This document shows, one piece after another, positions 9,274-51,619 of a stretch of 57,971 nucleotides of DNA (position 1 is its first letter; every line of letters starts with the position of its first letter). The notes beneath the pieces are model-generated. The model did not search any database, was not told where the DNA came from, and saw only the letters and a program-made list of their open reading frames with translations. Source of the stretch: Methylococcaceae bacterium (GTDB lineage: Bacteria > Pseudomonadota > Gammaproteobacteria > Methylococcales > Methylococcaceae). Position numbers and translations under genes: made by a program. The stretch is from the NCBI GenBank assembly GCA_051007495.1, contig JBPCSC010000216.1, positions 1-57,971 on the forward strand, written 5' to 3'.

Positions 9274-9306
9274 GCAGATGGATTGCATTAAATGAATGGC
9301 AAATGA

Positions 9307-10200: not shown

Positions 10201-10212
10201 AGAGAGCATTAA

Positions 10213-11145: not shown

Positions 11146-11154
11146 CCCATCAAT

Positions 11155-11952: not shown

Positions 11953-12014
11953 TTTCCAGCAGTTGTAATCCCTGTCTGCGATAATTCATCTATGAACTTT
12001 CAAAATTAAACACA

Positions 12015-13250
12015 ATGGCCAAAAGAGTGGATCGTAGTCTCATCGTCGGGTTGGATATAGGCACTTCCAAAGTCGCCTGTATAGTAGGTGAACTGAGTGA
12101 TGAAGGTGATATTGAGGTTGTCGGTATTGGTGTGAGTCCTTCCCGTGGGCTACGCAAAGGTGCAGTCGTGAATCTTGAAACCACGGTTCAATCCATACAG
12201 AAAGCCGTTATGGAAGCTGAGCTGATGGCCGGTTGTCGTATCGAATCGGTTTATGCCGGCATCGCCGGTAGCCACATCAAAAGCATGAATTCGCATGGCA
12301 TTGTGGCCATCAAGGATAAAGAAGTCACCCAAAGCGACATTGACCGCGTGATTGATTCGGCTCGTGCCGTAGCCATTCCGGCAGATCAGAAAATTCTCCA
12401 CATCCTCCCGCAGGAATTCGTAATTGATAGCCAGGAAGGTATAAAAGACCCTATTGGTATGTCGGGCATACGGTTGGAAGCCAGAGTACACATCGTTACG
12501 TGTGCCGTCAGCGCATACCAGAATATAGTCAAATGCATCCGCCGTTGCGGTCTGGAAGTGGAAGAGGTCGTTTTGGAGCAGGTGGCCTCCAGCATGGCAG
12601 TACTTACGGAAGATGAAAAAGATCTCGGCGTATGTCTGGTCGACATTGGCGGCGGAACGACCGACCTGGCGGTGTATGCCGGAGGGGCGATTCGGGCGAC
12701 GGACGTGATCCCCATAGCCGGAGACCAAGTCACCAACGATATCGCCATGGCATTAAGAACACCTAAGGATTCGGCGGAGGAAATCAAGAAAGCCCATGCC
12801 TGTGCCCTCACCCAAATGGCTCTTCTGGAAGATACGATTGAAATTGCCAGCACGGGCAACCGACCTCCCAGGCTTATCTCCAGGCAAAATCTGGCTGAAA
12901 TTGTAGGCCCTCGTTACGAAGAATTGCTGTTACTCATACAGGATGAACTGGCCCGTACCCGCTTCGCAGAGCTAATCCCTGCGGGAATGGTGGTTACCGG
13001 TGGCAGTTCCAAGGTACACGGACTGGTGGAACTCGCGGAGGAAATTTTCCACATGCCAGTGCGCATCGGAACGCCCCAGTACATCACCGGATTGGGTGAG
13101 GTCGTTAATAATCCCATTTATTCAACCTGTGTTGGACTGCTTTTATTCGGAAAGCAGCACTTGTCTCAGGGAGTCAGCAATACGTACTCCGGGATGGGTT
13201 TCAAAACAATGTGGGCCAGATTGAAAACCTGGTTCTCCGGTAACTTTTAA
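12015..13250 (+). CDS. ftsA: Cell division protein FtsA
   Basis: 411-aa actin-like ATPase (GLDIGTSKVACIVGE, VDIGGGTTDLAVY) with a C-terminal amphipathic helix (WARLKTWFSGNF). Confidence 0.96.
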   Translation: MAKRVDRSLIVGLDIGTSKVACIVGELSDEGDIEVVGIGVSPSRGLRKGAVVNLETTVQSIQKAVMEAELMAGCRIESVYAGIAGSHIKSMNSHGIVAIKDKEVTQSDIDRVIDSARAVAIPADQKILHILPQEFVIDSQEGIKDPIGMSGIRLEARVHIVTCAVSAYQNIVKCIRRCGLEVEEVVLEQVASSMAVLTEDEKDLGVCLVDIGGGTTDLAVYAGGAIRATDVIPIAGDQVTNDIAMALRTPKDSAEEIKKAHACALTQMALLEDTIEIASTGNRPPRLISRQNLAEIVGPRYEELLLLIQDELARTRFAELIPAGMVVTGGSSKVHGLVELAEEIFHMPVRIGTPQYITGLGEVVNNPIYSTCVGLLLFGKQHLSQGVSNTYSGMGFKTMWARLKTWFSGNF

Positions 13251-13279
13251 TTACAGATCATCAACAATAAGGTCAAAAA

Positions 13280-14437
13280 ATGAAATTTGAGCTGGTCGAT
13301 TCGTACAGCCAAAACGCTATCATCAAGGTGGTTGGCGTAGGGGGTGGTGGTGGCAATGCCGTCAATCACATGGTCAATAGCAGTATCGAAGGCGTTGATT
13401 TTATTTGCGCCAACACCGATGCCCAGGCACTCAAGAGCATCCACGCACGTTCGGTGATTCAACTTGGCAACGCGCTGACCAAGGGCTTGGGTGCCGGAGC
13501 CAATCCAGAGATAGGCCGTCAGGCCGCTCTGGACGATAGGGACCGTATACTGGAGGTATTAGGAGGTGCTGACATGGTATTCATCACCGCCGGTATGGGG
13601 GGGGGGACAGGCACCGGAGCCGCACCTGTCATCGCTGAAATAGCCAAGGAAGCCGGAATCCTGACTGTAGCCGTCGTCACCAAGCCTTTCCCGTTTGAGG
13701 GCAAGAAGCGTCGTGATGTAGCCGAAAAGGGCATAGAAGAGCTAAGTCAGTTCGTCGATTCACTCATTACCATTCCCAATGAAAAGCTACTTCCTGTGCT
13801 CGGCAAGGATGTCAGCCTCATCAATGCTTTTGCCGCCGCAAACGATGTTTTACTCGGTGCGGTTCAAGGTATCGCCGATCTGATCACCCGCCCGGGGTTG
13901 ATCAACGTGGACTTTGCCGACGTGAGAACTGTAATGGCCGAAATGGGCATGGCCATGATGGGTACTGGAGTAGCCAGTGGCCCTAACCGTGCTCGTGAAG
14001 CCGCCGCCCGTGCCATAGCCAGCCCCCTTTTGGAAGACATCAACCTCAATGGGGCCCGTGGAATTCTGGTCAACATCACCGGAGGTCTGGATTTGGCCAT
14101 AGGCGAATTCGACGAAGTGGGCAATGCTGTGAAGGAATTTGCATCAGACAATGCAGAAGTCGTCATCGGTACGGTGATAGACCCTGAATTGCATGATGAA
14201 CTGCGAGTAACCGTAGTCGCCACCGGTTTGGCTCATCATCGTCAACCTAACGAACCGCACATTAAGCTGGTGCACAAGCATACCGGCGAGATTGATTACG
14301 ATCAGCTGCAGCAACGCCCGTCCATCAGCCGCAAACAACCCAGCAAGATGGACAGCCGAGGTTCCGAACCCAGAGGCAAGGAAATAGACCTCGAATACCT
14401 GGATATTCCGGCCTTTCTGCGTCGTCAGGCGGATTAA
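13280..14437 (+). CDS. ftsZ: Cell division GTPase FtsZ
   Basis: 385-aa ORF with tubulin signature [18 protein letters not shown] and conserved C-terminal peptide [16 protein letters not shown]. Confidence 0.98.
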
Positions 14438-14485
14438 GTTTTTTCATCGACTGGCCACTACGGCTGCATATAGCGAGAAACATTA

Positions 14486-15400
14486 ATGATTAGGCAAAGA
14501 ACACTCAAAAACGTTATCCGTGCGACTGGCGTGGGTTTACACACCGGAGAAAAGGTTTACCTGACCTTAAGACCGGCAACAGCCAATACCGGTATTGCAT
14601 TCCGCCGGGTTGATCTGCCTGAACCGGTACTGATTGAAGCAGTCCCCCAAAATGTGGGTGAAACCACTTTATCCACCACGCTGGAAAAGAACGGTGTAAA
14701 GATTTCAACCGTAGAGCATTTATTGTCCGCTTTCGCCGGGCTAGGAATCGACAATGCCTACGTGGATGTCAGTTCTGCCGAAGTACCCATAATGGATGGC
14801 AGTGCCGGGCCGTTTGTGTTTTTGATCCAGTCGGCCGGTGTGGAAGAACAAGCCGCCCCCAAGCGGTTCATCCGGATTAAACGTCCAATACGGGTACAAG
14901 ACGGTGATAAATGGGCTTGTTTTGAACCCTACGAAGGCTTCAAAGTAACCTTCACCATAGACTTTGACCACCCGGCTTTCCGTGAAGAAAACAAAACCGC
15001 AAGCGTGGATTTTTCCTCCACCTCTTTCGTCAAGGAAGTCAGTCGGGCGCGTACTTTTGGTTTTATGCGTGATATAGAGGCTTTGCGCCAGCGTCGTCTG
15101 GCCCTGGGTGGTAGTCTGGACAATGCCATTGTGGTGGACAACTACCGCGTACTAAACGAAGAAGGTTTGCGCTATGCCGATGAGTTCGTCAAACACAAAA
15201 TTTTGGATGCCATCGGTGATCTTTACCTGCTAGGCCACAGCCTCATAGGCTCGTTTACGGGCTACAAATCAGGTCACGGTCTGAATAACCAACTGCTGCG
15301 TGAACTTTTGGCTCATCAAGATGCATGGGAATCAGTCACCTTTGGTGACGACGAAGAAATGCCTATCTGCTTCATGCGGCCGGTACACGCCGGATCCTGA
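14486..15400 (+). CDS. lpxC: UDP-3-O-acyl-N-acetylglucosamine deacetylase
   Basis: 304-aa ORF starting [24 protein letters not shown] with [14 protein letters not shown] motif. Canonical position after ftsZ. Confidence 0.97.
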
Positions 15401-15455
15401 TGTCTCGCATGATCTCCCTCCGGCATGGAAGCCGGACTGGATCGTCTGCTCTCGC

Positions 15456-15962
15456 TCAAAACAGCTCTAAAGTCTCCCCTGCCTGCCCAATCCGGATTAC
15501 CGGATCGCCCTTGCGTATCACCCCTCCTCCTACGATGGTGGCCGTCATGCCACCGTGTCCACGCATAACGTTGAACCCCCCTGCTCCCAAGCTCTCCTCC
15601 ATCCGCGAGCACGGATGACAGGCACCAGTAATCTCCAGCATCACCGTGTCACCAATCTTTAGCCATTGCCCTTTCAATGCGAGAAGATTAATCCCGCTAA
15701 TCAGCAGATTACGTCTGAGCGTGTGTGGTTCTACGGTGTATCCCAGCAAAGCAGACACCACGGCCAGGTGCTCACTCTGAATAAGCGTCACCTGCCGTTT
15801 GCGCTGCTGTATTCCGGCGTAATGATCGCCCGCAATTCCTGTTACGGCATCCAATATCAGTTCGTCTCCCACCAACATGGGAGCACGCCGTAGCGGTCGA
15901 ACACCCATCCACTCGACTCGCCCGTTACGCGGAAATTGATGTAGCAGATTTTGATAGCTCAA
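15456..15962 (-). CDS. MOSC domain-containing protein
   Basis: 168-aa ORF with a MOSC-like beta-barrel region and the conserved cysteine context ITGACHPCSRME. Its start overlaps the upstream tauE-like stop by 4 nt, which suggests one operon. Confidence 0.8.
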   Translation of the reverse strand: MSYQNLLHQFPRNGRVEWMGVRPLRRAPMLVGDELILDAVTGIAGDHYAGIQQRKRQVTLIQSEHLAVVSALLGYTVEPHTLRRNLLISGINLLALKGQWLKIGDTVMLEITGACHPCSRMEESLGAGGFNVMRGHGGMTATIVGGGVIRKGDPVIRIGQAGETLELF

Positions 15963-16759
15963 AGTACAAACTTGATGCCTATGAGCATCAGCAGCGTCGC
16001 CAATATGGGCCTAAGGATCTTTTCAGGAATCCGGGCACTGAGGTGGCTCCCCAGGTAGATGCCGGGTAGCGAGCCTAATAGCAAACTGCCTAAAAGATTA
16101 AAATCGACATTTCCCATGTGTAAATGGCCCAAGCCGGCCACAGCGGTCAAAGGGATGGCATGGGCCAGATCAGTGCCCACAATACGCACAGTGGCCAGAC
16201 GGGGATAAAGAAAGAACAAAGCCACAGTACCCAAAGCACCCGCCCCCACAGAAGACAGGGTCACCAAAACACCCAGCATCAAGCCCGTCATTATTGTCAT
16301 GGGTGCTTGCCAACGACCAAAACGCTCAGTGTGCGTGACGCGCTGTACAGCAGGTTCATGAGAACGGAGTCGCATGGCAATGAGCCGATTACGAACAAAC
16401 AGAGAAATACTCGTCAAGATCAAGGCAACACCCAATGTTGTGGTGATAACCGCCGTAACGGAGTCATCTTTCTCGAACACGTTTTCAAGAAGATAAATGA
16501 CGGTCAGCGCAGCCGGCAGGCTGCCTATGCAGAGTTGCCCGACGATTTTCCAATCCACCGAACGGTGTTTGCCGTGGTGTACAAATACACCCAAGCCCTT
16601 GGTAATAGAGGCGAAGAGGAGATCGGTACCGACGGCCGTCTTGGGGGAAAAACCAAAAAGAAAAACCAACAGTGGGGTCATCAGTGACCCGCCTCCCACG
16701 CCGGTCAGGCCCACCAAAAAACCAACCAGCAATCCCGATACGATGTAGCCTGTCAACAT
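15959..16759 (-). CDS. TauE/SafE family sulfite/anion exporter-like membrane protein
   Basis: 266-aa polytopic membrane protein with duplicated G-rich helices (LVGLTGVGGGSLMTPLL and LSSVGAGALGTVALFFL), as in the TauE/SafE (DUF81) family. Confidence 0.83.
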   Translation of the reverse strand: MLTGYIVSGLLVGFLVGLTGVGGGSLMTPLLVFLFGFSPKTAVGTDLLFASITKGLGVFVHHGKHRSVDWKIVGQLCIGSLPAALTVIYLLENVFEKDDSVTAVITTTLGVALILTSISLFVRNRLIAMRLRSHEPAVQRVTHTERFGRWQAPMTIMTGLMLGVLVTLSSVGAGALGTVALFFLYPRLATVRIVGTDLAHAIPLTAVAGLGHLHMGNVDFNLLGSLLLGSLPGIYLGSHLSARIPEKILRPILATLLMLIGIKFVL

Positions 16760-16847
16760 TACAAACGCTCCCGTAAAACGATGGAGTCTAGCGGTTTAGC
16801 GCGAAGGCACGCCAGTAGGTTGACATAACGGTTTGGAATAAACTTAT

Positions 16848-16886
16848 GAATAAATAAATAAGAAGCAGCCTAGAGGGGCTGCTTCT
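16848..16886 (-). terminator. Rho-independent terminator downstream of the cytochrome gene
   Basis: Perfect 10-bp stem AGAAGCAGCC / GGCTGCTTCT (16861-16870 / 16877-16886) with a 6-nt loop. On the minus strand it is followed by TTATTTATTTATT. It lies 23 nt after the cytochrome stop codon. Confidence 0.6.
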
Positions 16887-16908
16887 TATTGAGTGTCCTG
16901 CTGAGACC

Positions 16909-19725
16909 TTACTCCACTATGGCCAGATTTTTTACCTTGGCAAATTTTGCCGCAGTGGGTTGAACTACCACATAACCCGAACCTTCAGCGGTAACAGGAG
17001 AAAAATCCACGATCTCGGCGTCAGTGAATTTCTGCCAACTTTTGCAAGTAGCCGAATAAGCCACAGAAAGCTTATCCGTCGCACTCATCGAACCCGTATA
17101 AGGCAGTTTGATGAGAATATCGCCCTTACTCGGATTAGCCACGACTTTGCGCGACTGATTCTGGAAGGTCAAAGTATAAACATCCTTAATCTCATTGACT
17201 CCGAGATTAGCCGCGCATCCGACATCCGCCTTATTAGAAGCGCGGGACTTCATGGTCACCTTAACAGACCGCATCCGAGTTTCACGATCTGCATCACCAG
17301 GCATAATCATAGCCGCCTTGCTAAGACTGGCTTCTCCCACCTCAGAGTTGAATACCAACCAGTGGCTGCTATTCAGTTTTTTGGATATCTTCTCTGCGGT
17401 CGATGATGAAATACGGGCATACTGAGTACCGTCCGCATAATCGGCAGTCTTAAAGTAACCGATAATTTCACGGGTATTTTCGGCATTTAAAATTGACATG
17501 GAAGGATTGATGGCACTGGCTTCGAGTACTGCAGCCACGCTTTCCTTTATAGTGCCGGCAGAGTCGATCTGATAATACGGTTTACCCAATACAAAAATGC
17601 CTTCATCAACCAGGCGACGGTCAGGCACACTACCTATAGGCAGTAGTTTATTGCGTCCGAAAATACCATCATCTGAAACAGCAGCACGATACACACCACG
17701 AGTATCTTTTTCATGGCAATCACCACAAGGAACAGACTCCTTGGCCGGACGTGTCTGGTGATTAAGAATATACTCGTTGGTTTCAGTGTAAATAAGTTTT
17801 ACATCCGGATTTTTGTACCCCTTCCTGTCCAGCAGTTTGTCATAAATCTGCTTGAGTATCTTATACCCGTCATAGTTAACCGGATCACCCAGTTGACCCA
17901 TCGCGTTAATACTTACACGACCGGCTTCCTGTTGGGTTTGAGGATCAATGATGGCACCATACGCCACTCCAGTAGCATCGGTTTTCCTGGCTAGAACCGA
18001 TTGCGTTTCATATCGTGACAAAATCCGTCCGCTGGTTTTATCCTGAGCGAAATAACGGGTATGTGGTTTGTATGGTACAACTTTCATCTTGCCGTCGTGA
18101 TCAATACGGTTTCGGTAATGAATTTCACCGGGTTTGTCATTGTATGCCACATTAGTAATATGACAGGCTTGGCAAGTGATCTGATCGAAATGCACCTGTA
18201 CCACCTTGTCATACGTAGCGGGCATATATCCTTCCATATACCCTCTTTGTTTCCACAATTCACGGTGTGCATCCAAGGCGGTATGTTCACCCGAACTTGG
18301 CAACGACGGAGATTTAGCGGTATCGTGGCAATAGTCACACTCCAGTGGTTTAGGGGCATTGGTTAGGTCATGGCGGATGTCGCTATCCGTGTTTCCCTTG
18401 AGGAATTGATGATCAGGCGACAACTCCATAGGAATGGAAGCCGGCTTATAGTATTCCTTAGAGTGACAGGCTACACAGGTCTGAATTTCCCGGCTTTCAC
18501 CACTATCATCCAGCCATACTTTGCCTTTATGTACGTCATCTTTGAAATCGGCAACCCGAGTTCCGTCCGGATTAAGGGTTTGTACGGAATCAACACCGAA
18601 ACCATAAAAACCACGCCGACTACCGACCGATTTGCCAGAGGAAATCCGGTTAATACCAGAACTGGCCAAATGACACATCATGCAATTATCGTTATTTGGA
18701 AAACGGTACATAGGCATGAGTACATTACCCTGTGCGTCAAAGGCATCTTTATTCCAGATCAGTTTGGGTTGCCCCTGTTCATTAAGATTCAAAGTATAAG
18801 ACGGCTGTGGCGTATTAGGAGTGATGGTACGGTCAACCCGCAGCAACTGCAGACCATCAGTCGTATCTGGTTTCAGGTTAAGGAATTCCAGCATCGCAGA
18901 ATTGGCGTAACGAAAAAAACCTTTATTGATAAACTGACCATCCTGTAAAAGACCCCAATGAGTAAATGCGTTAGAGGTGCCATCCTTGCCGTCATTACCG
19001 CCTAACTGACTGGCGGGGAACTTCTTAAGATTGGAAAAATTCGCATGGCAGGTCAGACAATCGGCTTCACGCACGCCGCTTTTCTGCCAGTCCCACCGAG
19101 CCAGACCGGCCGGCGAGGTTTTATCCCGTTCAAAATAATCCCCATCCTTGTCGGCGATTAGTTCCACTGGTTTTAGATCGTATCGTATGCCGTCACGGTC
19201 TTTTTCTTCCCAGCCACCACCCATATGACAGGAACTGCAAGCCTTGATAAAACCAGCTGCGCCCCATTCACCAAAATCGTTGACATTGGTATTGACCTTC
19301 TTGGCTAGGACACCCGTCTGACTGCCTTGCATACAGTTATAGCCACCGAAATAACCGGGGCCGACTAAGGAAGAAAGGCCTTTAAATCCGAACTTAGGAA
19401 TCTTGTCACCACGTTTTTTGCCGTAGTCATCATCAGTTTCATCAGGGCCTTGTTCAAAGTGAAACCCGTGAGTGATTTTGTCGTAATCATGACAACCTGA
19501 ACCTTCACAACTCTTGCGGGTGCTATACGGCAAGCCGCTTTCCAGCACATGTTTTCCGTTTTCATCCAGTAAAGGAAACACGGGGTGAATCACTGTTATA
19601 TCCAGATCGTTGGTGGCTCTGGCGACCATAGGGACTAAAATTACCAAACACAAAGCCAGCAGCAGCGTCAGCTGCCTAGCCGGTCTGGTACATCGCCTAA
19701 GAAGTGTAAAAAAAATATCGATCAT
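16909..19725 (-). CDS. Secreted octahaem c-type cytochrome (one CX4CH plus seven CXXCH) with a haem-free C-terminal domain
   Basis: The long ORF runs 16909-19797. I prefer the ATG at 19725 (MIDIFFTLLRR...), which gives a signal peptide ...LALCLVILVPMVARA/TND. Haem motifs are CEGSGCH, CSSCH, CLTCH, CMMCH, CVACH, CDYCH, CQACH, CGDCH. GC content is visibly lower than in flanking genes. Confidence 0.85.
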   Translation of the reverse strand: MIDIFFTLLRRCTRPARQLTLLLALCLVILVPMVARATNDLDITVIHPVFPLLDENGKHVLESGLPYSTRKSCEGSGCHDYDKITHGFHFEQGPDETDDDYGKKRGDKIPKFGFKGLSSLVGPGYFGGYNCMQGSQTGVLAKKVNTNVNDFGEWGAAGFIKACSSCHMGGGWEEKDRDGIRYDLKPVELIADKDGDYFERDKTSPAGLARWDWQKSGVREADCLTCHANFSNLKKFPASQLGGNDGKDGTSNAFTHWGLLQDGQFINKGFFRYANSAMLEFLNLKPDTTDGLQLLRVDRTITPNTPQPSYTLNLNEQGQPKLIWNKDAFDAQGNVLMPMYRFPNNDNCMMCHLASSGINRISSGKSVGSRRGFYGFGVDSVQTLNPDGTRVADFKDDVHKGKVWLDDSGESREIQTCVACHSKEYYKPASIPMELSPDHQFLKGNTDSDIRHDLTNAPKPLECDYCHDTAKSPSLPSSGEHTALDAHRELWKQRGYMEGYMPATYDKVVQVHFDQITCQACHITNVAYNDKPGEIHYRNRIDHDGKMKVVPYKPHTRYFAQDKTSGRILSRYETQSVLARKTDATGVAYGAIIDPQTQQEAGRVSINAMGQLGDPVNYDGYKILKQIYDKLLDRKGYKNPDVKLIYTETNEYILNHQTRPAKESVPCGDCHEKDTRGVYRAAVSDDGIFGRNKLLPIGSVPDRRLVDEGIFVLGKPYYQIDSAGTIKESVAAVLEASAINPSMSILNAENTREIIGYFKTADYADGTQYARISSSTAEKISKKLNSSHWLVFNSEVGEASLSKAAMIMPGDADRETRMRSVKVTMKSRASNKADVGCAANLGVNEIKDVYTLTFQNQSRKVVANPSKGDILIKLPYTGSMSATDKLSVAYSATCKSWQKFTDAEIVDFSPVTAEGSGYVVVQPTAAKFAKVKNLAIVE

Positions 19726-20168
19726 CGAAATGTACCTAGAGCTTGGGCAAGCGTGGTGTGTTTCCCCCACCGGGGTGATCAAAGTCCAGCCTTGCACCGT
19801 GAAAAATTAGAATTCAAATGAGAGGGATTATTCCTCGCCAGTTTAGTCAGCAAAATATTTACCAATTGTTACCTTGCCAACAGTTCGATGGGAAACGGTT
19901 GTGATTTAACAGGGATGTAAGTACAAACACTTAAAGTGTAATCTGGCCTAAGGCAAGTTAGGTAAGGGTTATATCACGCAGTCTCACTGGCATTTGCCGC
20001 AATAACGACAAGTGAGTGCGAGAGGTATTTTATGGCGTTGAAGGAGAGTAGTCATTACAGGATTATTCTGTAGGACGAAAATAATCTGAGTAAAATACAG
20101 TATAAGAGTTTAGTGATTAGACAGAGGATAAAAAAGACACCGACGGCAGAATTGCATCATGCACGTTA

Positions 20169-20462
20169 CTAACGTAAATCAAAAAGTAAAAAAGCGGAGA
20201 ACACGTGCACTTCCGATACGGTAGAACATCTGCCACCGATGTAAAGTCGAGGGCGTGGAAAAAACTTCTTGCAATGAATCATGCCACTTAAATATGTTGT
20301 CGAATTACAAGCCTTTATAAGGATGAACCGTATGAAAACTAACATGTATAAAAAATGAATTGTTGGAAAACACACATAAACTGCGGTAAATCCCATGATC
20401 ACCCGTGAAAGCACAAAGCGTGTCATTTGTCGCGATGCGTGCGGCATAAAACAAAGTTCCAT
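20169..20462 (-). CDS. Hypothetical small membrane protein (97 aa)
   Basis: The ATG is preceded by AAGAGGG with a 7-nt spacer. The product has a hydrophobic core FVLSRVIMGFTAVYVCFPTIHFLYMLVFIRFILI. No recognisable family. The region is AT-rich, so a chance ORF remains possible. Confidence 0.35.
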   Translation of the reverse strand: MELCFMPHASRQMTRFVLSRVIMGFTAVYVCFPTIHFLYMLVFIRFILIKACNSTTYLSGMIHCKKFFPRPRLYIGGRCSTVSEVHVFSAFLLFDLR

Positions 20463-20530
20463 CGGTTAACCCTCTTATTATTACTATATTTCAGAGACTG
20501 GCATAAGCTTTGCGTATAAACGAAGTTGGG

Positions 20531-20577
20531 GCGGGTTTGAAGCACACATCAAAACAATCAAACCCGCACGTTTTTTT
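20531..20577 (+). terminator. Intrinsic-terminator-like hairpin immediately upstream of the PPIase gene
   Basis: GCGGGTTTGA (20531-20540) pairs with TCAAACCCGC (20558-20567). The loop is 17 nt, followed by ACG and T7 (20571-20577). The T-run exists only on the plus strand. It ends 21 nt before the ATG at 20599. Confidence 0.45.
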
Positions 20578-20598
20578 ATCGAATCGAGAATTGATGTT

Positions 20599-21474
20599 AT
20601 GAATCGTTACGTTACAGGAATGCTGGTAATAGCCGGTAATATGGTGTTGAATGAGTGTAATGCCATGAGCAGCCAGACCACTTCTGGAAACCCTCATGAT
20701 GCGGTTTCCATTCGGCCTGATGTCAAGCCTGGAGATATTCTGGCTATGGTTAATGGAAAACCCATTGCCCGCAGTGCCTTGGGGCAGAATCCACACCGTA
20801 ATAACATGAAACCGGAAGATAGCCAAAGAGATGAATTAGTGGAGCGTGAATTACTGCGCCAAGAAGCGGAGCGCGATAATCTGCTCAAGGATCCTGCTGT
20901 AGCAGAAAAACTCGACAACGCCATTCGTCTGGCCATGTCTCAGATTTCGGCAGAACACTACATAAAATCTGTATCCATTACGGATAATGACGTCAGGAAA
21001 GAGTATGAAGGGCATGCTCAAATGATGAAGAAAACCGAGTATAAAGCACGGCATATACTGGTAGATTCAGAGAAAAAGGCAGTAGAGATTATAGAAAAGC
21101 TAAATAAGGGCAACTCATTCGAAGAACTGGCACGCAAACACTCAAGTGATAAAGCCAGCCAAGAGCAGGGGGGAGATTTGGGTTGGTTTACTGCGGATGC
21201 GATGGTTGAGCCATTTTCTGTTCATGTTATGGCACTCAAGAATGGTGAGATCGGCTCTAAGCCGATACAAACTCAGTTTGGCTGGCATATTGTGCAGCGA
21301 TTGGAGTCAAGAGAACAAAAACCACCTGCTTTTGAGCAGGTACAGAATCAGATCAGAGCGATGCTGCAGACGCGCCAATTTCATCAGCACCTGGATGATT
21401 TAAAACAGCACGCAAAAATAGAAATAACTGAACCCAACGCGAATAACACCTCGCCTGGAACCCAACAGCCTTAA
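20599..21474 (+). CDS. Periplasmic PpiC/parvulin-type peptidyl-prolyl cis-trans isomerase (SurA/PEB4-like chaperone architecture)
   Basis: 291-aa ORF with a signal-like N-terminus. The parvulin core reads YKARHILVDSEKKAVEIIEKLNKGNSFEELARKHSSD...GGDLGWF...GWHIVQRLE and is flanked by helical chaperone-like segments. Confidence 0.88.
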   Translation: MNRYVTGMLVIAGNMVLNECNAMSSQTTSGNPHDAVSIRPDVKPGDILAMVNGKPIARSALGQNPHRNNMKPEDSQRDELVERELLRQEAERDNLLKDPAVAEKLDNAIRLAMSQISAEHYIKSVSITDNDVRKEYEGHAQMMKKTEYKARHILVDSEKKAVEIIEKLNKGNSFEELARKHSSDKASQEQGGDLGWFTADAMVEPFSVHVMALKNGEIGSKPIQTQFGWHIVQRLESREQKPPAFEQVQNQIRAMLQTRQFHQHLDDLKQHAKIEITEPNANNTSPGTQQP

Positions 21475-21505
21475 GCTCCGTGGTTTAGTATCCATAATAA
21501 TAGTG

Positions 21506-21544
21506 GCGTTCATTCCGCTTATGATGGTGAACAGGAATGAACGC
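21506..21544. terminator. Inverted repeat between the convergent PPIase and XRE genes (possible bidirectional terminator)
   Basis: Perfect 11-bp arms GCGTTCATTCC / GGAATGAACGC with a 17-nt loop. Flanks are only weakly T-rich on either strand. Confidence 0.3.
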
Positions 21545-21550
21545 ACCATT

Positions 21551-21886
21551 TTACCCACCAAAACGCATTGAACCCATAAGGGTATTAATTTCAGTAAGTA
21601 GACTATGGAGTTTGTCTGTTTCAACATCGGGCAAAGGACAGACGGAACAGACACGACACCCCGGAACTTCCATTTGCGCCAGCTCAGACTGGTTTCCAAT
21701 AAACAGGCCTGTTACTTCAAGATTCAAAACACAGGCAATCTGCTTTATTCGGGACAAACTAATATCTGTTTCTCCGCGTTCGATACTCCCGTATCCATTG
21801 GTGGACATTTCCAAACGGGTTGCCATTTCTTCTTGTGACCACCCACGTGCTTGCCTAAGCAATCGTATATTGTTGTGCAGATTCAT
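21551..21886 (-). CDS. XRE-family helix-turn-helix transcriptional regulator with a C-terminal CxxCxxC motif
   Basis: The HTH_3-like N-terminus MNLHNNIRLLRQARGWSQEEMATRLEMSTNGYGSIERGETDISLSRIKQIACVLN begins at the internal ATG 21886 (the track ORF extends to 21928). The C-terminal part contains GCRVCSVCP. Confidence 0.85.
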   Translation of the reverse strand: MNLHNNIRLLRQARGWSQEEMATRLEMSTNGYGSIERGETDISLSRIKQIACVLNLEVTGLFIGNQSELAQMEVPGCRVCSVCPLPDVETDKLHSLLTEINTLMGSMRFGG

Positions 21887-22072
21887 ACTCGTGTGACTCT
21901 CATACTTGGTTGGCCTGTCTGAGGCCAAGGTTATTGAAGTCTTATGAGTCTATCAGGTCGGTTTACTGTGCGATTGTACGGTAGTTCCCGCGTAATGGTT
22001 AAGGGATTGCCTATTCATCTCAAATCTTACCCACCCAGAGGCAACATTCAATCCTTAGACCGTGTATGGCCA

Positions 22073-22801
22073 TCAGGCCATGTCACCCCAAAAGCATTGC
22101 ACGGCGGCAATAGCGGTTAGGGCGGCCGTTTCTGTTCTGAGTATGCGGGGTCCTAACCGCACCGGAAGGTAGCCGGACGTTCGAGCAGATTGGCGTTCGT
22201 GTTCGGCAAACCCGCCCTCAGGTCCTGACAACAAAACCAGCGTACCGGATGGGCGAGTCAAACCGCTCAGCCCAGTTTCAGCCCCGGGATCGAAAAACAG
22301 CCCCATATCAGGTGAGTTTTTTAGAAAGTCAGTAAGCGCAACGGGTTCGTCGAGGCAAGGAACACGATTGCGTCCGCTCTGCTCACAGGCGGCGCGAATG
22401 ATTTTCAGCCAGTGTGCCGTTCGGTTGCCGCGCCGGGTTTCATCCAGTTTCACTACGCAATGTTCCATAAAAAGTGGGCTGATACGGGCCACACCCAGTT
22501 CCACCGCCTTTTGTATCACCCAATCCATGCGTTCGCCGCGTGATATACCAATGGCCAAATGAACACTCAAAGGCGACTCCAGCGAATGATGGCGTGCCGC
22601 TCCGATTTCCAGGCACACGAGTTCACGGTGTGCTTCAACCACTCGGGCAGAAAATTCCTGATCGGTGTCATTGAACACAGTTAATTCGGCTCCTTTCTTG
22701 AGTCTAAGGACAGTCTTCAGGTAATGGGCACTGTCATCGTCCAGTTGCAGGCGGGAGTACTCGGTTAAAACCTTCGAAACAAACAGTCGGGAGATTCTCA
22801 T
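22073..22801 (-). CDS. rsmE: 16S rRNA (uracil1498-N3)-methyltransferase
   Basis: 242-aa ORF with an RsmE-like N-terminal PUA-like region (MRISRLFV..., HYLKTVLRLKKG) and a C-terminal SPOUT region (LLSGPEGGFAEHE, LGPRILRTETAAL). Confidence 0.9.
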   Translation of the reverse strand: MRISRLFVSKVLTEYSRLQLDDDSAHYLKTVLRLKKGAELTVFNDTDQEFSARVVEAHRELVCLEIGAARHHSLESPLSVHLAIGISRGERMDWVIQKAVELGVARISPLFMEHCVVKLDETRRGNRTAHWLKIIRAACEQSGRNRVPCLDEPVALTDFLKNSPDMGLFFDPGAETGLSGLTRPSGTLVLLSGPEGGFAEHERQSARTSGYLPVRLGPRILRTETAALTAIAAVQCFWGDMA

Positions 22802-23511
22802 GCAGAGGGTTCTCCCCGGTGTGGACGTTTGCCGAAAATGGCCGTACCGATGCGAACCATGGATGCGCCTTCGGTAATGGCCGCGTCCAAATCGTCTGAC
22901 ATCCCCATGGATAAGGTATCCAGGCCGGGTAAATCACTAAGCGTATGCAAGGTATCTCTCACCATTCTGAATGCGGTTCGTTGCTGGGTAACATCCTCAC
23001 AGGGGGCGGGTATAGCCATGAGTCCACGCAAGCGCAGACACGGCAAGTGCGCAATCTCTAGGGCCAATTCCCGCACGGAATCAGGATGGACTCCGGATTT
23101 GCTGGACTCGCCACTGACATTGACTTGCAGGCAGATATTTAAGGGGAGGCGGTTGGCCGGGCGTTGTTCACTCAGTCGTTCGGCGATTTTCAGTCGGTCT
23201 ACTCCGTGTACCCAATCGAAAGACTCCGCCAGTAGGCGAGTCTTGTTGGTCTGAATAGGGCCTATGAAATGCCAGATAATGTCAAAATGGGCCAGTTGAC
23301 GCTGTTTGCTCAAGGCTTCCTGCACATAGTTTTCGCCAAATTCCCGTTGCCCAGCCTGATAGGCGGCTATCAGTGCTTCGACGGGTTGTGTTTTGCTGAC
23401 TGCGATCAAGCGCACCGTGCCTATGTCTCGACCGGCGTTATGTTCTGCCGCCCGGATACGCAGACGAATATCGTCTAGCCGTTCGGCTACAGGTTTGGAG
23501 TGTGGGTTCAT
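22798..23511 (-). CDS. yggS: YggS-family pyridoxal-phosphate homeostasis protein
   Basis: 237-aa ORF with VRLIAVSKTQP (PLP lysine context), FGENYVQE, WHFIGPIQTNK and SMGMSDDLDAAI motifs typical of YggS/PROSC. Confidence 0.9.
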   Translation of the reverse strand: MNPHSKPVAERLDDIRLRIRAAEHNAGRDIGTVRLIAVSKTQPVEALIAAYQAGQREFGENYVQEALSKQRQLAHFDIIWHFIGPIQTNKTRLLAESFDWVHGVDRLKIAERLSEQRPANRLPLNICLQVNVSGESSKSGVHPDSVRELALEIAHLPCLRLRGLMAIPAPCEDVTQQRTAFRMVRDTLHTLSDLPGLDTLSMGMSDDLDAAITEGASMVRIGTAIFGKRPHRGEPSA

Positions 23512-23663
23512 AGTGGTTAAAGGTTCTCGTCGTGGGGGTGTTCTCTTCGCGCCAGGTATCCGGAAACCTATTCGTAAAATAAACGGGCATCCGTCTTGAC
23601 TTGGGGGTTCACTTTAGTGGTCAAATAGCCGCCCTTCAACTTCCGTACACGTTTCTGTCTGCC

Positions 23664-25466
23664 ATGCCCATACGCTTGCTCCCGCCACAACTCATTAACC
23701 AGATCGCCGCTGGTGAGGTCGTAGAGCGACCGGCTTCGGTCATCAAGGAATTGGTAGAAAATGCCTTTGATGCCGGGGCTAGTCGTGTCGAGATTGATAT
23801 TGAGCTGGGCGGATTGCGGTTGATGCGGGTGCGTGATGACGGATGCGGCATAGAAGAAACCGAATTGCCACTGGCTTTGTCGCGCCATGCCACCAGCAAA
23901 ATCAGCAGCCTGGATGACCTTGAACACATCACCAGTATGGGGTTTCGGGGCGAGGCATTACCCAGTATTTGCTCAGTTTCGCGGCTCACTTTGACCTCGC
24001 GCACCCCGGAAGCCCGTTGTGCGTATCGCGTGAGCAGCGATGGCGGCGAACAACATTTTGATGTGCAACCTGCTGCTCACCCGACCGGTACTTCTATTGA
24101 GGTCAGGGATTTGTTCTACAACACACCGGCACGGCGCAAATTTCTTAAATCCGACAAAACCGAATTTGGCCACATCGAAACCTTGATCAAACGCATGGCC
24201 TTGGCTCGGTTCGGGACCGGTTTTGTGCTCACGCATAATCAGCGCGCCGTGTTGGATCTGGTGCCGGCTCTGGATATGGCAGCGGTCGAGCAGCGGGTCA
24301 GTCTGTTGCTGGGCGAACATTTTCTATCCAACGCCCTCCGGGTTGATGATCAGGGAGCAGGTTTGTCATTGGAGGGTTGGATAGGCGTGCCTACCATAGC
24401 CCGCAGTCAGGCCGATCAACAATATTTTTACGTCAATGGTCGGTTGGTGCGGGACAAGGTGCTGACCAACGCGGTCAAGCAAGCGTATCAGGATGTGCTG
24501 TATCAGGGGCGGCAACCGGTATACATATTATATTTGGCACTGGATCCGGCCTTGGTGGATGTCAATGCACATCCCACCAAAATGGAGGTTCGTTTCAGGG
24601 ACGGTCAGTCGATTTACCGATTCATTCTCTCCAGCGTACAACGGGTGCTTTCGGGAGCCAGACCGGGTGGTTTTGAGAACCGGGTAGAATTCGATCAACC
24701 CAAGGCCAGTCAGGCGCGTATTCCTGAAGCACCTGTCCGGCCAGCGTATCGCTCAGCAGGTGGAGCCGAACCCGCCTACCGGCGAGAGAACACCTCTTTG
24801 AATGTCAATGAATTGACCCGCGCCTACCAAAACCTCTACAACCCGGCGACGGAGTTATCTTCCGTACCCGTAAATCCGGCCACGCCGCCTTTGGGTTATG
24901 CCGTGGCTCACTTGCATGGAGCGTTCATTCTGGCCGAGAGTGCGAGCGGTTTGATTGTGGTGGATGCTCATGCCGCCCATGAGCGGGTCACGTATGAGCA
25001 ACTGAAAAAAGACCATGCGGCCGGACGTATTCCCAGCCAACCCATGTTGTTGCCAGTCCGGGTGGCCGTCAGTCCGTCCGAGGCAGAACTGGCTGAAGCC
25101 TGGGCGGAATCTTTGCTTGAACTGGGAGTGGATTTATCCCGCACCGGGCCTGAAACCTTGATGCTGCGTGCGCTGCCTTCCTTGCTGGATCCCTGTGATG
25201 GCGAGGTGCTGATTCGCGATATGCTGTCTGATCTGAGCCAGTTCGGACACAGCCACAGAATTGAAGAGCAACTCAACGGGATATTGTCTCAACTGGCCTG
25301 TCATGGCTCCGTTCGCGCCAACCGCAAACTGACGGTGGCCGAAATGAACAGCTTGCTAAGGGCCATGGAAGCGACTGAACGCAGTGGTCAATGCAACCAC
25401 GGCCGCCCTACCTGGGTAGAACTGGATATGAAGCAACTGGATAAGCTGTTTCACAGAGGTCAGTAG
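23664..25466 (+). CDS. mutL: DNA mismatch repair endonuclease MutL
   Basis: The ATG at 23664 gives MPIRLLPPQLINQIAAGEVVERPASVIKELVENAFDAGA, the canonical GHKL N-terminus. The track start at 23601 is a TTG upstream extension. The C-terminal dimerisation region ends ...GRPTWVELDMKQLDKLFHRGQ. Confidence 0.95.
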   Translation: MPIRLLPPQLINQIAAGEVVERPASVIKELVENAFDAGASRVEIDIELGGLRLMRVRDDGCGIEETELPLALSRHATSKISSLDDLEHITSMGFRGEALPSICSVSRLTLTSRTPEARCAYRVSSDGGEQHFDVQPAAHPTGTSIEVRDLFYNTPARRKFLKSDKTEFGHIETLIKRMALARFGTGFVLTHNQRAVLDLVPALDMAAVEQRVSLLLGEHFLSNALRVDDQGAGLSLEGWIGVPTIARSQADQQYFYVNGRLVRDKVLTNAVKQAYQDVLYQGRQPVYILYLALDPALVDVNAHPTKMEVRFRDGQSIYRFILSSVQRVLSGARPGGFENRVEFDQPKASQARIPEAPVRPAYRSAGGAEPAYRRENTSLNVNELTRAYQNLYNPATELSSVPVNPATPPLGYAVAHLHGAFILAESASGLIVVDAHAAHERVTYEQLKKDHAAGRIPSQPMLLPVRVAVSPSEAELAEAWAESLLELGVDLSRTGPETLMLRALPSLLDPCDGEVLIRDMLSDLSQFGHSHRIEEQLNGILSQLACHGSVRANRKLTVAEMNSLLRAMEATERSGQCNHGRPTWVELDMKQLDKLFHRGQ

Positions 25467-25477
25467 TCAAGCCACCG

Positions 25478-26434
25478 ATGACTCCCCCACACGCACCCCA
25501 TGTCCTGGCCATTATGGGACCAACCGCATCCGGCAAGAGTCGTCTGGCCATAGACCTCGCCGAGCGACTGAACGGCGAAATCATCAGCGTCGATTCGGCT
25601 TTGATCTACCGGGGTATGGACATAGGCACTGCCAAACCGACCCCCACCGAGCAGCGCGGCATACCGCATCACTTGATCGACATTCGTGATCCCGCTGAAT
25701 CCTACTCCACCGGAGCCTTTATTAAAGATGCCGGTCGGCTTATCACCCACATCACCCATCAGGGCAAGCTGCCTATACTGGCTGGCGGAACCTTCCTGTA
25801 CTTCAATGCCTTGTTTCATGGTATGGCGGAATTGCCCGAAGCCGACCCGGCAGTGCGTCGGGCGATAGATCAAGAAGCCGACCGTCTGGGGTGGTTGGCC
25901 ATGCATCAGGAGTTGGCCCGTGTTGACCCGGAAGCCGCAGCCCGCATCCACCCCAATGATCCCCAACGCATACAACGTGCGCTGGAAGTCTGGCGGCTGA
26001 CAGGCACTAGCCTCACTGAACTCTGTACCCGCACCCCGTCGCAAGCGTTTCCATTAAATGTCACCCGCATCATCGTTTCCCCCACCGATCGCAGCATACT
26101 GCATGAACGGATACGGCAAAGATTTCTAGCCATGATCGAAAACGGCTTGATTGAAGAAGTGGAACGCCTGTACCAGCGGGGAGATTTGCATCTGGATGTA
26201 CCGGCACTGCGGGCCGTGGGGTATAGGCAGGTCTGGTTGTATCTGGACGGAACGTACAACCGCGAAACACTGATGGAACGCGGCGTTATCGCCACCCGCC
26301 AGTTCGCCAAACGCCAATATACCTGGCTACGCCGGGAAACCACCGGTTACCGTTACGACAGCGAATCACCCAGGCTCACCGAAAATGTGCTTAGGGATTG
26401 GAGTAGTCGTGCCGAGCAGCACAGCAAGGCGTGA
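25478..26434 (+). CDS. miaA: tRNA dimethylallyltransferase
   Basis: 318-aa ORF with P-loop IMGPTASGKS and the SVDSALIYRGMDIGTAKP motif. Canonical position after mutL. Confidence 0.95.
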   Translation: MTPPHAPHVLAIMGPTASGKSRLAIDLAERLNGEIISVDSALIYRGMDIGTAKPTPTEQRGIPHHLIDIRDPAESYSTGAFIKDAGRLITHITHQGKLPILAGGTFLYFNALFHGMAELPEADPAVRRAIDQEADRLGWLAMHQELARVDPEAAARIHPNDPQRIQRALEVWRLTGTSLTELCTRTPSQAFPLNVTRIIVSPTDRSILHERIRQRFLAMIENGLIEEVERLYQRGDLHLDVPALRAVGYRQVWLYLDGTYNRETLMERGVIATRQFAKRQYTWLRRETTGYRYDSESPRLTENVLRDWSSRAEQHSKA

Positions 26435-26487
26435 AACAGCCCGACTGCCATTTCTCACCGAGTGCAAAGCGCACGTAATGGCACGTC

Positions 26488-27306
26488 ATGCCTGAATTAC
26501 CCGAAGTAGAAACCACCTGTCGCGGCATTAGGCCGCACATCCTTAACCAGACCGTAGAGCAGATCGTCGTCCGTGAACACCGTTTGCGCTGGCCGGTGAC
26601 TGGCGACTGGATAGCCGCCCTGCCAGGGGCTGTGGTGACTCAAGTCTGGCGGCGCGGCAAATACATCCTGCTAGACACCACCTACGGCACGCTCATCCTG
26701 CACTTGGGTATGTCGGGCAGTTTGAGAATCACCACGCCCGAGATGCCGCCGCGTCGGCATGACCACATCGACCTGGTGTTCGCCCACGGGGTTTGCCTGC
26801 GTTTTCATGATCCGAGGCGGTTTGGATGCCTTTTGTGGACTGAAACCAATCCGGCACAGCATCCACTGCTGGCCGAACTCGGCCCTGAACCTTTGGCCGC
26901 AGACTTTACCGGCGACTACCTCGCGGCACGGGCCGACAAACGCACTCAAGCCATTAAGACCTTCATCATGGACAGCCATCAAGTGGTGGGGGTGGGGAAT
27001 ATCTACGCCAACGAAGCCTTGTTCCGGGCCGGTATTAACCCCGCTCGACCAGCAGGCCAGTTGTCTGGCTCCGATCATGAACGACTGAGTGCGGCCATAC
27101 GCTCAGTGCTGGCGGCCGCCATCACCATGGGCGGCACAACCCTGCGGGATTTCGTCAACGAATCAGGTGCTCCAGGCTATTTCAGCCAGACCCTGATGGT
27201 TTATGGCCGAACCGGACAAGCCTGCCGGGTGTGTGGTCAGGCCATCCAGACCACTCGGCTAGGTCAAAGGGCGACGTACTGGTGTGCGGTGTGCCAAAAG
27301 CCATGA
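26488..27306 (+). CDS. mutM: Formamidopyrimidine-DNA glycosylase
   Basis: 272-aa ORF starting MPELPEVE (catalytic Pro2/Glu3), with the H2TH region and a C-terminal zinc finger CRVCGQ...YWCAVCQ. Confidence 0.95.
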   Translation: MPELPEVETTCRGIRPHILNQTVEQIVVREHRLRWPVTGDWIAALPGAVVTQVWRRGKYILLDTTYGTLILHLGMSGSLRITTPEMPPRRHDHIDLVFAHGVCLRFHDPRRFGCLLWTETNPAQHPLLAELGPEPLAADFTGDYLAARADKRTQAIKTFIMDSHQVVGVGNIYANEALFRAGINPARPAGQLSGSDHERLSAAIRSVLAAAITMGGTTLRDFVNESGAPGYFSQTLMVYGRTGQACRVCGQAIQTTRLGQRATYWCAVCQKP

Positions 27307-45850: not shown

Positions 45851-46342
45851 TCAAAAAGGCACGTCGTCGTCGAAGTCATCTCCACCGTAAGCCGGAGGAA
45901 TGGCCGGTGCGGCAGCAGGCGGGGTGTTTTGCCTGCCGGTCTCGGTGCGGGCCATAGGCGGTGAACCCAGCGGAGGCGCCATGTTATCCCCTGCGCCATT
46001 GCTGCGGGTGTCCAGCATCTGCATATCACTGGCTACAATTTCAGTCGTGTAGCGTTCAACGCCGTTCTTGTCTTGCCACTTGCGGGTTCTCAGGCTGCCT
46101 TCAACATACACCTTACCGCCCTTACGCAGATACTGTCCGGCGATCTCGGCCAGTTTGCGGAAGAACACCACCGCGTGCCACTCGGTGCGCTCCTGTTGCT
46201 GGCCGGTTTGTTGATCCTTCCAGGTTTCGCTGGTTGCGATACGGATATTGGTGACGGCTTCACCGCTGGGCATATAGCGAACTTCAGGGTCGGCACCCAG
46301 ATTGCCGACCAGAATAACTTTATTAATACCTCGTGAGGCCAT
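45851..46342 (-). CDS. ssb: Single-stranded DNA-binding protein
   Basis: 163-aa [42 protein letters not shown]... (OB fold), a Gly/Pro-rich linker and the canonical acidic tip DDFDDDVPF. Confidence 0.97.
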
Positions 46343-46359
46343 TGGTTTCTCCTATAGAG

Positions 46360-51498: not shown

Positions 51499-51560
51499 GC
51501 GAGTAAATTGACCCATAGTGCGTGTAAGACCCAGAAAACCCACCGATTATACAGACACCC

Positions 51561-51594: not shown

Positions 51595-51619
51595 GCCCCA
51601 GGCACATAGTCAGGTTCGT

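Follow-up and report, generated by a model that had tools for sequence, protein, structure and literature searches.

A low-GC islet in a Methylococcaceae contig carrying an orphan MCA0424/MCA0426-type cytochrome and a PEB4-like parvulin

Is a short low-GC segment within a largely housekeeping region of a Methylococcaceae genome a self-contained electron-transfer module, or a set of genes that happen to lie side by side? This question is raised by the 57,971-nt stretch of contig JBPCSC010000216.1 (assembly GCA_051007495.1; hereafter the window), in which a low-GC islet of about 5.3 kb (16760–22072) lies between tauE (15959–16759, minus strand) and rsmE (22073–22801, minus strand). The islet encodes a multihaem c-type cytochrome, a parvulin-type peptidyl-prolyl isomerase (PPIase) and an XRE/Cro-C1 regulator with a helix-turn-helix (HTH) domain. 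An earlier note on this DNA had read the segment as a horizontally acquired, self-regulated module of four genes in a combination not described before. On balance we think it probable that the locus is an old acquired islet with an orphan cytochrome of the MCA0426/MCA0424 type, a PEB4-like PPIase that plausibly serves such cytochromes, and the XRE gene as a bystander. The locus reveals no new kind of system; its cytochrome stands alone but belongs to a family of methanotroph surface cytochromes that is already known.

Composition and age of the islet

The islet was delimited by GC content, by GC at third codon positions (GC3) and by comparison with a sister locus. Its GC content is 0.454, compared with 0.545 for the remainder of the window. 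GC was 0.42–0.475 in the 1-kb windows from 17001 to 22000 and mostly 0.49–0.62 elsewhere. In 300-nt windows the fall extended from about 16650 to about 22050, with the lowest values (0.377–0.41) in the spacer at 19.8–20.5 kb. GC3 was 0.454 for the cytochrome gene, 0.450 for the PPIase gene and 0.432 for the XRE gene, which is 3.7–4.3 standard deviations below the mean of the 35 other open reading frames (ORFs) of the window (0.586 ± 0.036, minimum 0.516). Because GC3 of the three genes is low as well, the drop is not an amino-acid effect, and the GC difference that had been counted by hand in the earlier note is real. The codon-adaptation comparison proposed at the same time did not set the islet genes apart (0.63–0.70 versus 0.70 ± 0.03, with the window's own genes as the basis).

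In agreement with the earlier note, no integrase or transposase was found among the window ORFs or their Pfam matches, no tRNA gene was found in the window, and no convincing or significant repeat flanks the islet. A search of PHROGs returned generic HTH matches and no prophage signs, and Rfam matches between 15 and 24 kb (E ≤ 1) were at chance level. Thus, of the features of a classical genomic island, the islet has the deviant composition and lacks the integrase or transposase, the tRNA target and the flanking direct repeats. LpxC-based synteny in 185k species genomes identified no empty site with tauE beside rsmE; the nearest genomes by LpxC are only 81% identical, and none has MOSC, TauE or RsmE genes after lpxC. 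As GC and GC3 are low and the nearest cytochrome homologues lie in five unrelated contexts, a foreign origin is likely, and the islet is best described as old and horizontally acquired, and not as a recent mobile element. To this extent the earlier proposal of horizontal acquisition holds.

The best PPIase match (85% identity) identified a 43-kb contig, L091 (sequencing run SRR24319172), that is syntenic with the window from murC to miaA. Its tauE–rsmE interval is likewise GC-poor (0.42–0.47) and holds the PPIase and XRE genes. The comparison of relatives suggested in the earlier note thus yielded the same islet at the same site with the same low GC, and no relative with an empty site. The presence of the same islet in L091 indicates that it is older than the split of the two species. 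In L091 the cytochrome gene is represented by a remnant (8375–9420 of that contig) corresponding to its 3' third (residues ~562–938) in three frames, together with two 5' scraps of ~60 nt. The counterparts of ~18050–19593 and ~19655–20078 (window coordinates) are missing, leaving one of the eight haem motifs. The cytochrome is therefore dispensable and is decaying as a pseudogene in L091. As L091 keeps the PPIase and XRE genes without the cytochrome, the gene set is not an obligate unit.

The ratio of nonsynonymous to synonymous divergence (dN/dS) between the window and L091 was 0.26 for the PPIase and 0.36 for the XRE gene, compared with 0.007–0.05 for ftsZ, lpxC and tauE and 0.13–0.24 for rsmE, yggS and miaA. 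Both islet genes are under purifying selection, and the XRE gene, with 68% amino-acid identity to its L091 counterpart, is the fastest-evolving gene of the region. Synonymous divergence, compared over 9000–26500 of the window, was 0.66–0.83 from murB to tauE and fell to 0.30 for the PPIase gene, 0.28 for rsmE, 0.19 for yggS and 0.125 for miaA. This fall points to a recombination end point inside the islet, about at the L091 deletion.

The cytochrome and its family

The cytochrome gene (16909–19725, minus strand) encodes a protein of 938 aa, predicted from its sequence to be secreted and to have a mass of ~100 kDa. The start was assigned to ATG 19725 rather than GTG 19797, in agreement with the homologue of locus L005. 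A Sec-type signal peptide, with cleavage predicted at ARA/TN, forms the N-terminus. Seven CXXCH motifs are encoded at 19225–19239, 19045–19059, 18670–18684, 18463–18477, 18325–18339, 18160–18174 and 17713–17727 (minus strand), spanning 17713–19239, and the sequence CEGSGCH (CX4CH; 19489–19509, minus strand) is a candidate eighth haem-binding site. We aligned 17 sequences of the family, including the window protein (alignment A1). All invariant columns are kept in the window protein, the seven CXXCH motifs are invariant, and so is an N-terminal Cys...Cys-His-Asp-Tyr (columns 85–95; window residues 73–79) with a spacer of 4–7 residues; in the window protein the invariant residues are C73, C78, H79, D80 and Y81. 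This length-variable CXnCH is an unusual candidate haem-binding motif. With seven CXXCH motifs and one conserved CX4CH the protein probably binds eight haems, and the secreted eight-haem cytochrome of the earlier note is plausible. An intrinsic terminator with a perfect 14-bp stem, a 6-nt loop and a T-rich tail (16857–16890, minus strand) follows the stop codon directly, which indicates that the gene is monocistronic and is not co-transcribed with tauE.

A protein search placed the cytochrome in a well-populated family of proteins of 880–1090 aa from Gammaproteobacteria, many of them Methylococcales. The window protein was 48% identical to P0014 (E = 1.6e-285) and 44% identical to P0020 (E = 1.8e-246), with a coverage of 96–97%. 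The P0014 cluster contains the Bath protein AAU90407, and the P0020 cluster contains AAU90409 and AAD17242, a 'putative septaheme c-cytochrome'. At locus L006 the gene order (proteins of 1080, 1158, 923, 101, 916 and 494 aa, followed by smaller multihaem proteins, a Fer4_5 protein and a flavodoxin reductase) agrees with that of the published MCA0421–MCA0433 region, in which MCA0427 is a beta-barrel protein (PMC517821, PMC4831470). With locus tags mapped from gene order and sizes, the window cytochrome appears to be closest to MCA0426 (48%) and then to MCA0424 (44%). The family has already been described: MCA0424 is ORF3 ('septahaem ORF3') of the cytochrome c553O (occ) cluster of Methylococcus, and MCA0424 and MCA0426 belong to copper-responding gene cluster 1.

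MCA0424 and MCA0426 were detected by mass spectrometry in the surface fraction of Methylococcus capsulatus. They are copper-repressed cytochromes, low copper raising MCA0426 8.6-fold and MCA0424 4.8-fold, and they share an operon with the MtrB-like barrel MCA0427 (PMC4831470). Outer-surface cytochromes of this organism contribute to current production and to the reduction of electrodes and Fe(III) (PMC6281684). The window protein resembles MCA0424 and MCA0426 in its size of ~920 aa, its seven CXXCH motifs and CXnCH, its Sec signal peptide and a sigma-54-like motif upstream of its gene. It differs from them in that its gene stands alone with its own terminator, has neither a partner of ~100 aa like ORF4 nor a barrel like MCA0427, and lacks neighbouring genes for periplasmic multihaem, Fer4 and flavodoxin proteins. 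By analogy with the M. capsulatus proteins, a surface location and a response to copper are predicted for the window cytochrome.

The genomic contexts of homologues fall into two kinds. At L001, L006 and L092 a homologue heads or sits inside a cluster of the porin-cytochrome type, in which genes for the cytochrome, a protein of ~90–100 aa and a protein of ~456–494 aa are accompanied by those for multihaem proteins, a Fer4_5 protein and a flavodoxin reductase. Elsewhere the homologue is an orphan, found beside bioBFHC (L004/L005, 78% identity), beside a PemK toxin-antitoxin pair and leuS (P0149, 73%), behind a MEKHLA gene (L087, 61%), between yacG and a hybrid kinase gene (L088, 60%) and beside a TonB receptor gene (L090, 51%). 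The window cytochrome is also an orphan: the 58-kb window contains no porin-cytochrome cluster and no homologue of the barrel or of the small partner. Because other orphan copies exist, the missing cluster is a trait of the context and not of the protein family. Homologues have the GC content of their flanks at L001, L006, L087, L088 and L090 and fall below it at L004/L005 (52.1% versus 59.5%) and in the window, a pattern that fits transfer from a donor of 41–50% GC into the clade that holds the window.

Two observations on these loci stand apart. The nearest homologue (L004 356–3164, L005 1614–4422) is frameshifted near residue 259 in two separate runs, and may be a decaying copy or carry a shared assembly error. 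The protein of ~90–100 aa that follows the cytochrome (L001 10763–11065, L006 7646–7951, L092 12472–12735) has the motif LPWLAGAGM...NCT...QGRCxxCGSC followed by a membrane helix, and is the counterpart of ORF4 (11 kDa) in the occ cluster.

We compared the cytochrome with better characterised systems. The haem-free AlphaFold model was mediocre (predicted local distance difference test, pLDDT, of 70.8), and Foldseek found no match to it in the PDB. A profile of the cytochrome matched nothing at E ≤ 1 in a copy of the PDB sequences that is expected to hold octahaem cytochromes such as MccA. Pfam PF22113 (MtrC/MtrF domain II/IV) matched with 25.4 bits, under its cut-off of 30. Shewanella MtrC/OmcA with MtrAB is comparable as a presumed surface outlet beside a barrel, an arrangement held by the Methylococcus, L001 and L092 clusters. 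The window protein differs from the decahaem MtrC/OmcA proteins in its eight haem sites, its sub-threshold Pfam match and the absence of a lipoprotein signal, and neither its sequence nor its predicted fold matched a solved structure, the staggered-cross fold included. It is therefore not placed among the MtrC/OmcA proteins. Neither a lipobox nor a C-terminal sorting tag is present in the window protein in alignment A1. The C-termini of P0031, P0053, P0099 and P0112 consist of a Gly/Ser-rich stretch, a hydrophobic helix and basic residues, as in a GlyGly-CTERM/PEP-CTERM tag, and the window protein has no such end.

Nor does the cytochrome belong with the octahaem tetrathionate reductases or with MccA/SirA. 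Its match to TIGR04315 (octahaem tetrathionate reductase) reached 40.7 bits against a cut-off of 375 and covered 115 residues only, its atypical site is CX4CH rather than CX15CH or CX12NKGCH, and neither the family library nor the PDB profile search detected a sequence relation to MccA. MccA has a CX15CH motif and a copper site and is accompanied by Fe-S and NrfD-like subunits and a dedicated haem lyase. In the mcc locus of Wolinella succinogenes, the precedent named in the earlier note, octahaem MccA is reportedly encoded beside a predicted PPIase, MccB. The likeness to the islet would be the pairing of a PPIase gene with one for an octahaem cytochrome that has an atypical haem site, but this precedent was not confirmed in the literature searched, in which the one review found gives MccB as an Fe-S subunit.

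The parvulin, the shared spacer and the XRE gene

The PPIase gene (20599–21474, plus strand) encodes a putative periplasmic parvulin chaperone-PPIase of 291 aa of the PEB4/HP0175 type (Rotamase_3, 90 bits). Its profile matched PEB4 (3RFW) over positions 47–276 (E = 1.1e-53) and HP0175 (6BHF) over positions 1–274 (E = 5.7e-43), and the protein has the full-length build of these chaperones, an arm formed by the N- and C-terminal parts and a single PpiC-type parvulin domain. The SurA/PEB4-like parvulin of the earlier note is thus PEB4-like. The match to these SurA-like chaperones of Campylobacter jejuni (PEB4, also Cbf2) and Helicobacter pylori extends over nearly the whole protein. It differs from them in being a diverged paralogue within a gammaproteobacterial lipoprotein family and in that it appears to be tied to a cytochrome gene and not to the general traffic of outer-membrane proteins. 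Relatives of the PPIase carry an L-x-G-C box and are lipoproteins; in the window and L091 proteins the box is a degenerate VLNEC in which the Cys is retained (20599–20670; L091 10001–10075). The window PPIase also lacks the Pro/Ala-rich C-terminal tail of its relatives.

Orthologues with 45–50% identity (Methylocaldum and another lineage) end a housekeeping ispA-YCII-bolA-PPIase operon. The window PPIase belongs to a separate paralogue clade with P0153 (L091), P0154 (on a 4.5-kb Logan contig), P0155 (L092) and P0157 (L176), which had 100% bootstrap support in a neighbour-joining tree. At L092, a locus from another metagenome, the clade PPIase gene lies 88 bp upstream of, and on the same strand as, a gene for a 1093-aa cytochrome homologue (36% identity, seven CXXCH), which is followed by genes for the small partner, the 456-aa protein, multihaem proteins, the Fer4_5 protein and the reductase. 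At L176 the contig stops 68 bp past the clade PPIase gene. In both loci this gene lies downstream of a conserved DUF4156 lipoprotein gene (L092 7060–7392, L176 2603–2935) next to pyrG-kdsA, a setting that suggests a shared ancestral position of the paralogue. Two of two independent readable contexts of the clade therefore adjoin a family cytochrome. This is unlikely to have arisen by chance, although the two cases perhaps share ancestry, and it makes a link between cytochrome and PPIase plausible. A PPIase is also found in the core extracellular electron transfer operon of SEEP-SRB1 and Desulfuromonadales, together with a beta-propeller protein and cytochromes of 16 and 26 haems (Skennerton et al. 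2017, PMC5539420). The likeness lies in the genetic coupling of a PPIase to multihaem cytochromes of very large size with a presumed part in extracellular electron transfer, and in horizontal spread (PMC5539420). The differences are another phylum, unrelated cytochrome families and a PPIase within one operon.

Promoters were sought by scanning for sigma-54-type −24/−12 motifs (TGGCAC-N5-TTGCW, GG and GC mandatory, scored out of 11). A 9/11 motif, TGGTAAATATTTTGCT (19849–19864, minus strand), begins 139 nt upstream of the cytochrome ATG, and another 9/11 motif, TGGCATAAGCTTTGCG (20499–20514, plus strand), begins 100 nt upstream of the PPIase ATG. The corresponding PPIase site of L091, TGGCAAAGGTTTTGCT, lies 99 nt upstream, is nearer to the consensus and sits in a stretch that is otherwise 58% identical. 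Equivalent motifs are present 86–124 nt upstream of the homologues at L001, L005, L006, L087 (11/11) and L088, and that of L006 is the exact sequence published as the putative sigma-54 promoter of MCA0424 (PMC4831470). Altogether, 8 of 13 upstream regions contained a motif scoring at least 9/11 at 84–207 nt from the start codon (86–139 nt for the seven cited as promoter sites). The chance expectation is ~0.07 per upstream region, at a background of 0.119 sites per kb per strand. From these patterns the cytochrome and PPIase genes probably share sigma-54-dependent control.

Midway between the divergent motifs lies a conserved non-coding block of 142 nt (20113–20254) with 94% identity to L091, compared with 58% for 20255–20598. 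It contains 14-bp inverted arms (20229–20242 and 20137–20150) and a CACGTG palindrome, and is a candidate shared regulator-binding region. No motif common to the block and the upstream regions of homologous cytochrome genes was found, and a Fur-box scan gave no site above background. The block was also considered as a small RNA; this was dropped, as the RNA fold of both strands was no better than that of shuffled sequences (z = −0.6 and −1.6) and no Rfam family matched. An ORF of 97 aa (20169–20462, minus strand) overlaps the block and is probably not a gene. Its GC is flat, near 0.40 at all three codon positions, it has no family match and is unrelated to the conserved partner of ~90 aa, and its reading frame is not preserved in L091, where indels occur even inside the conserved DNA block.

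The XRE gene (21551–21886, minus strand) encodes 111 aa from a conserved ATG that is supported by L091 and other homologues, within an ORF reaching TTG 21928. The HTH_3 domain (PF01381) scored 51.8 bits against a cut-off of 23, in keeping with the Cys-tailed XRE regulator of the earlier note, but the CxxCxxC of the tail is not conserved. L091 has CPVC only, the first Cys being absent, and P0273 has CPVY. A CxxC-P tail recurs in six of the seven close homologues, and in the wider family a coiled-coil tail takes its place. None of the cytochrome homologues examined has an XRE gene beside it. Nothing ties the XRE gene to the cytochrome, and we regard it as a neighbour of unexplained role. Between the convergent PPIase and XRE genes lies an 11-bp perfect inverted repeat, GCGTTCATTCC / GGAATGAACGC, with a 17-nt loop (21505–21544), which is likely a two-way terminator. 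A 20-nt direct repeat of 80% identity (21548–21567 and 22024–22043) brackets the XRE gene and may be due to chance.

Competing explanations and surrounding genes

The module of the earlier note has to be reduced on several counts. Four ORFs do lie where it had placed them; with the 97-aa ORF probably spurious, nothing tying the XRE gene to the cytochrome, and the PPIase and XRE genes kept in L091 without the cytochrome, a four-gene module is not supported. Self-regulation by the XRE protein gives way to motifs that point to sigma-54 and an enhancer-binding protein. The combination is not without description either, as the cytochrome family is known from MCA0424/MCA0426 and a PPIase within a multihaem operon is known from other bacteria (PMC5539420). 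The idea of an own folding catalyst fares better. It draws support from the PPIase clade, the adjacency at L092 and the sigma-54 motifs, and is tempered by the persistence of the PPIase gene in L091. Likewise, the gene-neighbourhood analysis that had been proposed recovered a PPIase gene beside a cytochrome gene at L092 but not in most other cytochrome contexts.

The sequence of events that we envisage is as follows. By homology, the cytochrome would be exported by Sec, receive its haem in the periplasm and reach the cell surface, where, under a shortage of oxygen or copper, it would hand electrons from respiration over to acceptors outside the cell. Because a barrel or partner gene is absent here, the porin-cytochrome conduit on which the cytochrome is presumed to dock would have its genes at another place in the genome. 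The product of the divergent PPIase gene would most likely help large proline-rich cytochromes to fold. An enhancer-binding protein might control both genes jointly, the two motifs facing away from the 142-nt block. A bolder version, which we put forward as a speculation with the odds against it, is that the PPIase clade (window, L091, L092, L176 and P0154) is a dedicated maturation factor for outer-surface octahaem cytochromes of the MCA0424/MCA0426 type. The two divergent genes, with their sigma-54 promoters on either side of a common activator-binding block, would then form a minimal 'plug-in', mobile by horizontal transfer, by which aerobic methanotrophs gain a new surface outlet for electrons on a porin-cytochrome conduit that they already have.

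A number of points weigh against the explanation that we favour. Localisation and function are extrapolated from an identity of 44–48% to proteins whose biochemistry is barely known, and no solved structure resembles the cytochrome model with its pLDDT of 70.8. Of the eight further cytochrome contexts examined, seven have no PPIase gene nearby, and the adjacency of PPIase and cytochrome genes is seen in two lineages only, which may share ancestry. Among the matches listed in a metagenome scan for the PPIase (80 loci), none lies near a family cytochrome; these were mostly distant parvulins of 33–41% identity, so that little can be learned from the scan about this particular clade. The PPIase is not devoted to this one cytochrome alone, as its gene outlasts that of the cytochrome in L091. 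The sigma-54 motifs are pattern matches, and genes for RpoN and an enhancer-binding protein are both missing from the window. Finally, as no relative with an empty site was found, it is base composition that argues for an insertion.

Some of these points would be expected if the tauE–rsmE interval were simply a recombination-prone spot holding three unconnected foreign genes, with the closeness of cytochrome and PPIase a coincidence. The rarity of the PPIase gene beside other cytochrome genes, its retention with the XRE gene in L091, the jump in synonymous divergence that marks a recombination end point, and the divergent arrangement in place of a single operon are all compatible with this reading. 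We nevertheless consider it rather unlikely. The PPIase is not the housekeeping orthologue, the only other fully readable context of its clade lies directly upstream of a homologous cytochrome gene, an unusual promoter type is common to the two genes, and GC3 is equal (0.43–0.45) in all three. It is much harder to credit that the low GC is native, the product of a local mutational or expression-linked bias with no horizontal transfer. Two species do share the islet, the integrase, tRNA and repeats are absent, and the codon-adaptation index is not deviant, but GC3 lies under that of every other gene of the window with a sharp change at both gene boundaries, the homologues match their flanks in genomes of 41–50% GC and are GC-poor relative to them only in the window's clade, and the nearest homologues are at unrelated loci.

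The remaining alternatives concern function. The cytochrome could be a periplasmic multihaem enzyme, a reductase or oxidase of a soluble nitrogen or sulfur compound with no surface conduit. The partial TIGR04315 match, the lack of a lipobox, C-terminal sorting tag and barrel partner in this copy, and a CXnCH site reminiscent of catalytic cytochromes all lean in that direction. We find this improbable, since the TIGR04315 match is short and far below its cut-off, the weak Pfam matches point to MtrC/MtrF domains, and the M. capsulatus homologues come from the surface fraction and are encoded beside an MtrB-like barrel (PMC4831470). Control of the cytochrome and PPIase genes by the XRE protein, sensing redox state or metal through its Cys tail in a self-contained regulon, appears quite improbable. 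Such a regulon would account for the position of the XRE gene in the same low-GC islet and its retention in L091, for the CxxC-P of most of its closest homologues, and for the conserved palindromic block, which could be its operator. Against it stand the variable tail, replaced by a coiled coil in the wider family, the rapid divergence of the gene, the absence of XRE genes beside the cytochrome homologues, and promoter motifs that call for sigma-54 together with an activator, a role that an XRE repressor does not fill.

With the orphan surface cytochrome as the preferred explanation, the locus shows that, among close relatives, one such cytochrome gene moves and degenerates on its own, as a unit of a single gene. 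A promoter motif of the sigma-54 type is common to the family, and a specific PEB4-like folding helper may accompany the cytochrome. The promoter type, the candidate chaperone and the atypical CXnCH site provide handles on a cytochrome family without a solved structure or established biochemistry. Aerobic methanotrophs are increasingly found to be active where oxygen is scarce, and surface multihaem cytochromes are leading candidates for their disposal of electrons (PMC6281684, PMC13322032).

Pfam confirmed TauE, MOSC and RsmE in the flanks, as well as the parvulin and HTH_3 domains in the islet. The remainder of the window is mostly housekeeping: the dcw cluster, lpxC, MOSC, tauE, rsmE, yggS, mutL, miaA and fpg, with groEL, glgA/B/C, malQ, tsaD, dnaG and dnaE, plus genes for a TonB receptor and a large RTX/cadherin protein. 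LpxC and FtsZ are 81% and 85% identical, respectively, to those of a Methylococcaceae metagenome-assembled genome and 77–79% identical to those of Methylobacter, Methyloglobulus and Methylovulum, which places the host in an uncultured lineage of the Methylococcales. The large protein (51518–56059; 1513 aa), a probable secreted adhesin, contains beta-propeller, cadherin-like, Big_9 and RTX repeats and is encoded where the GC content of the window is highest (0.60). At 46333–47808 two long ORFs overlap on opposite strands; since only the minus-strand ORF (46360–47766) has a family match, to a major facilitator superfamily (MFS) transporter, the plus-strand ORF is taken to be a shadow ORF.

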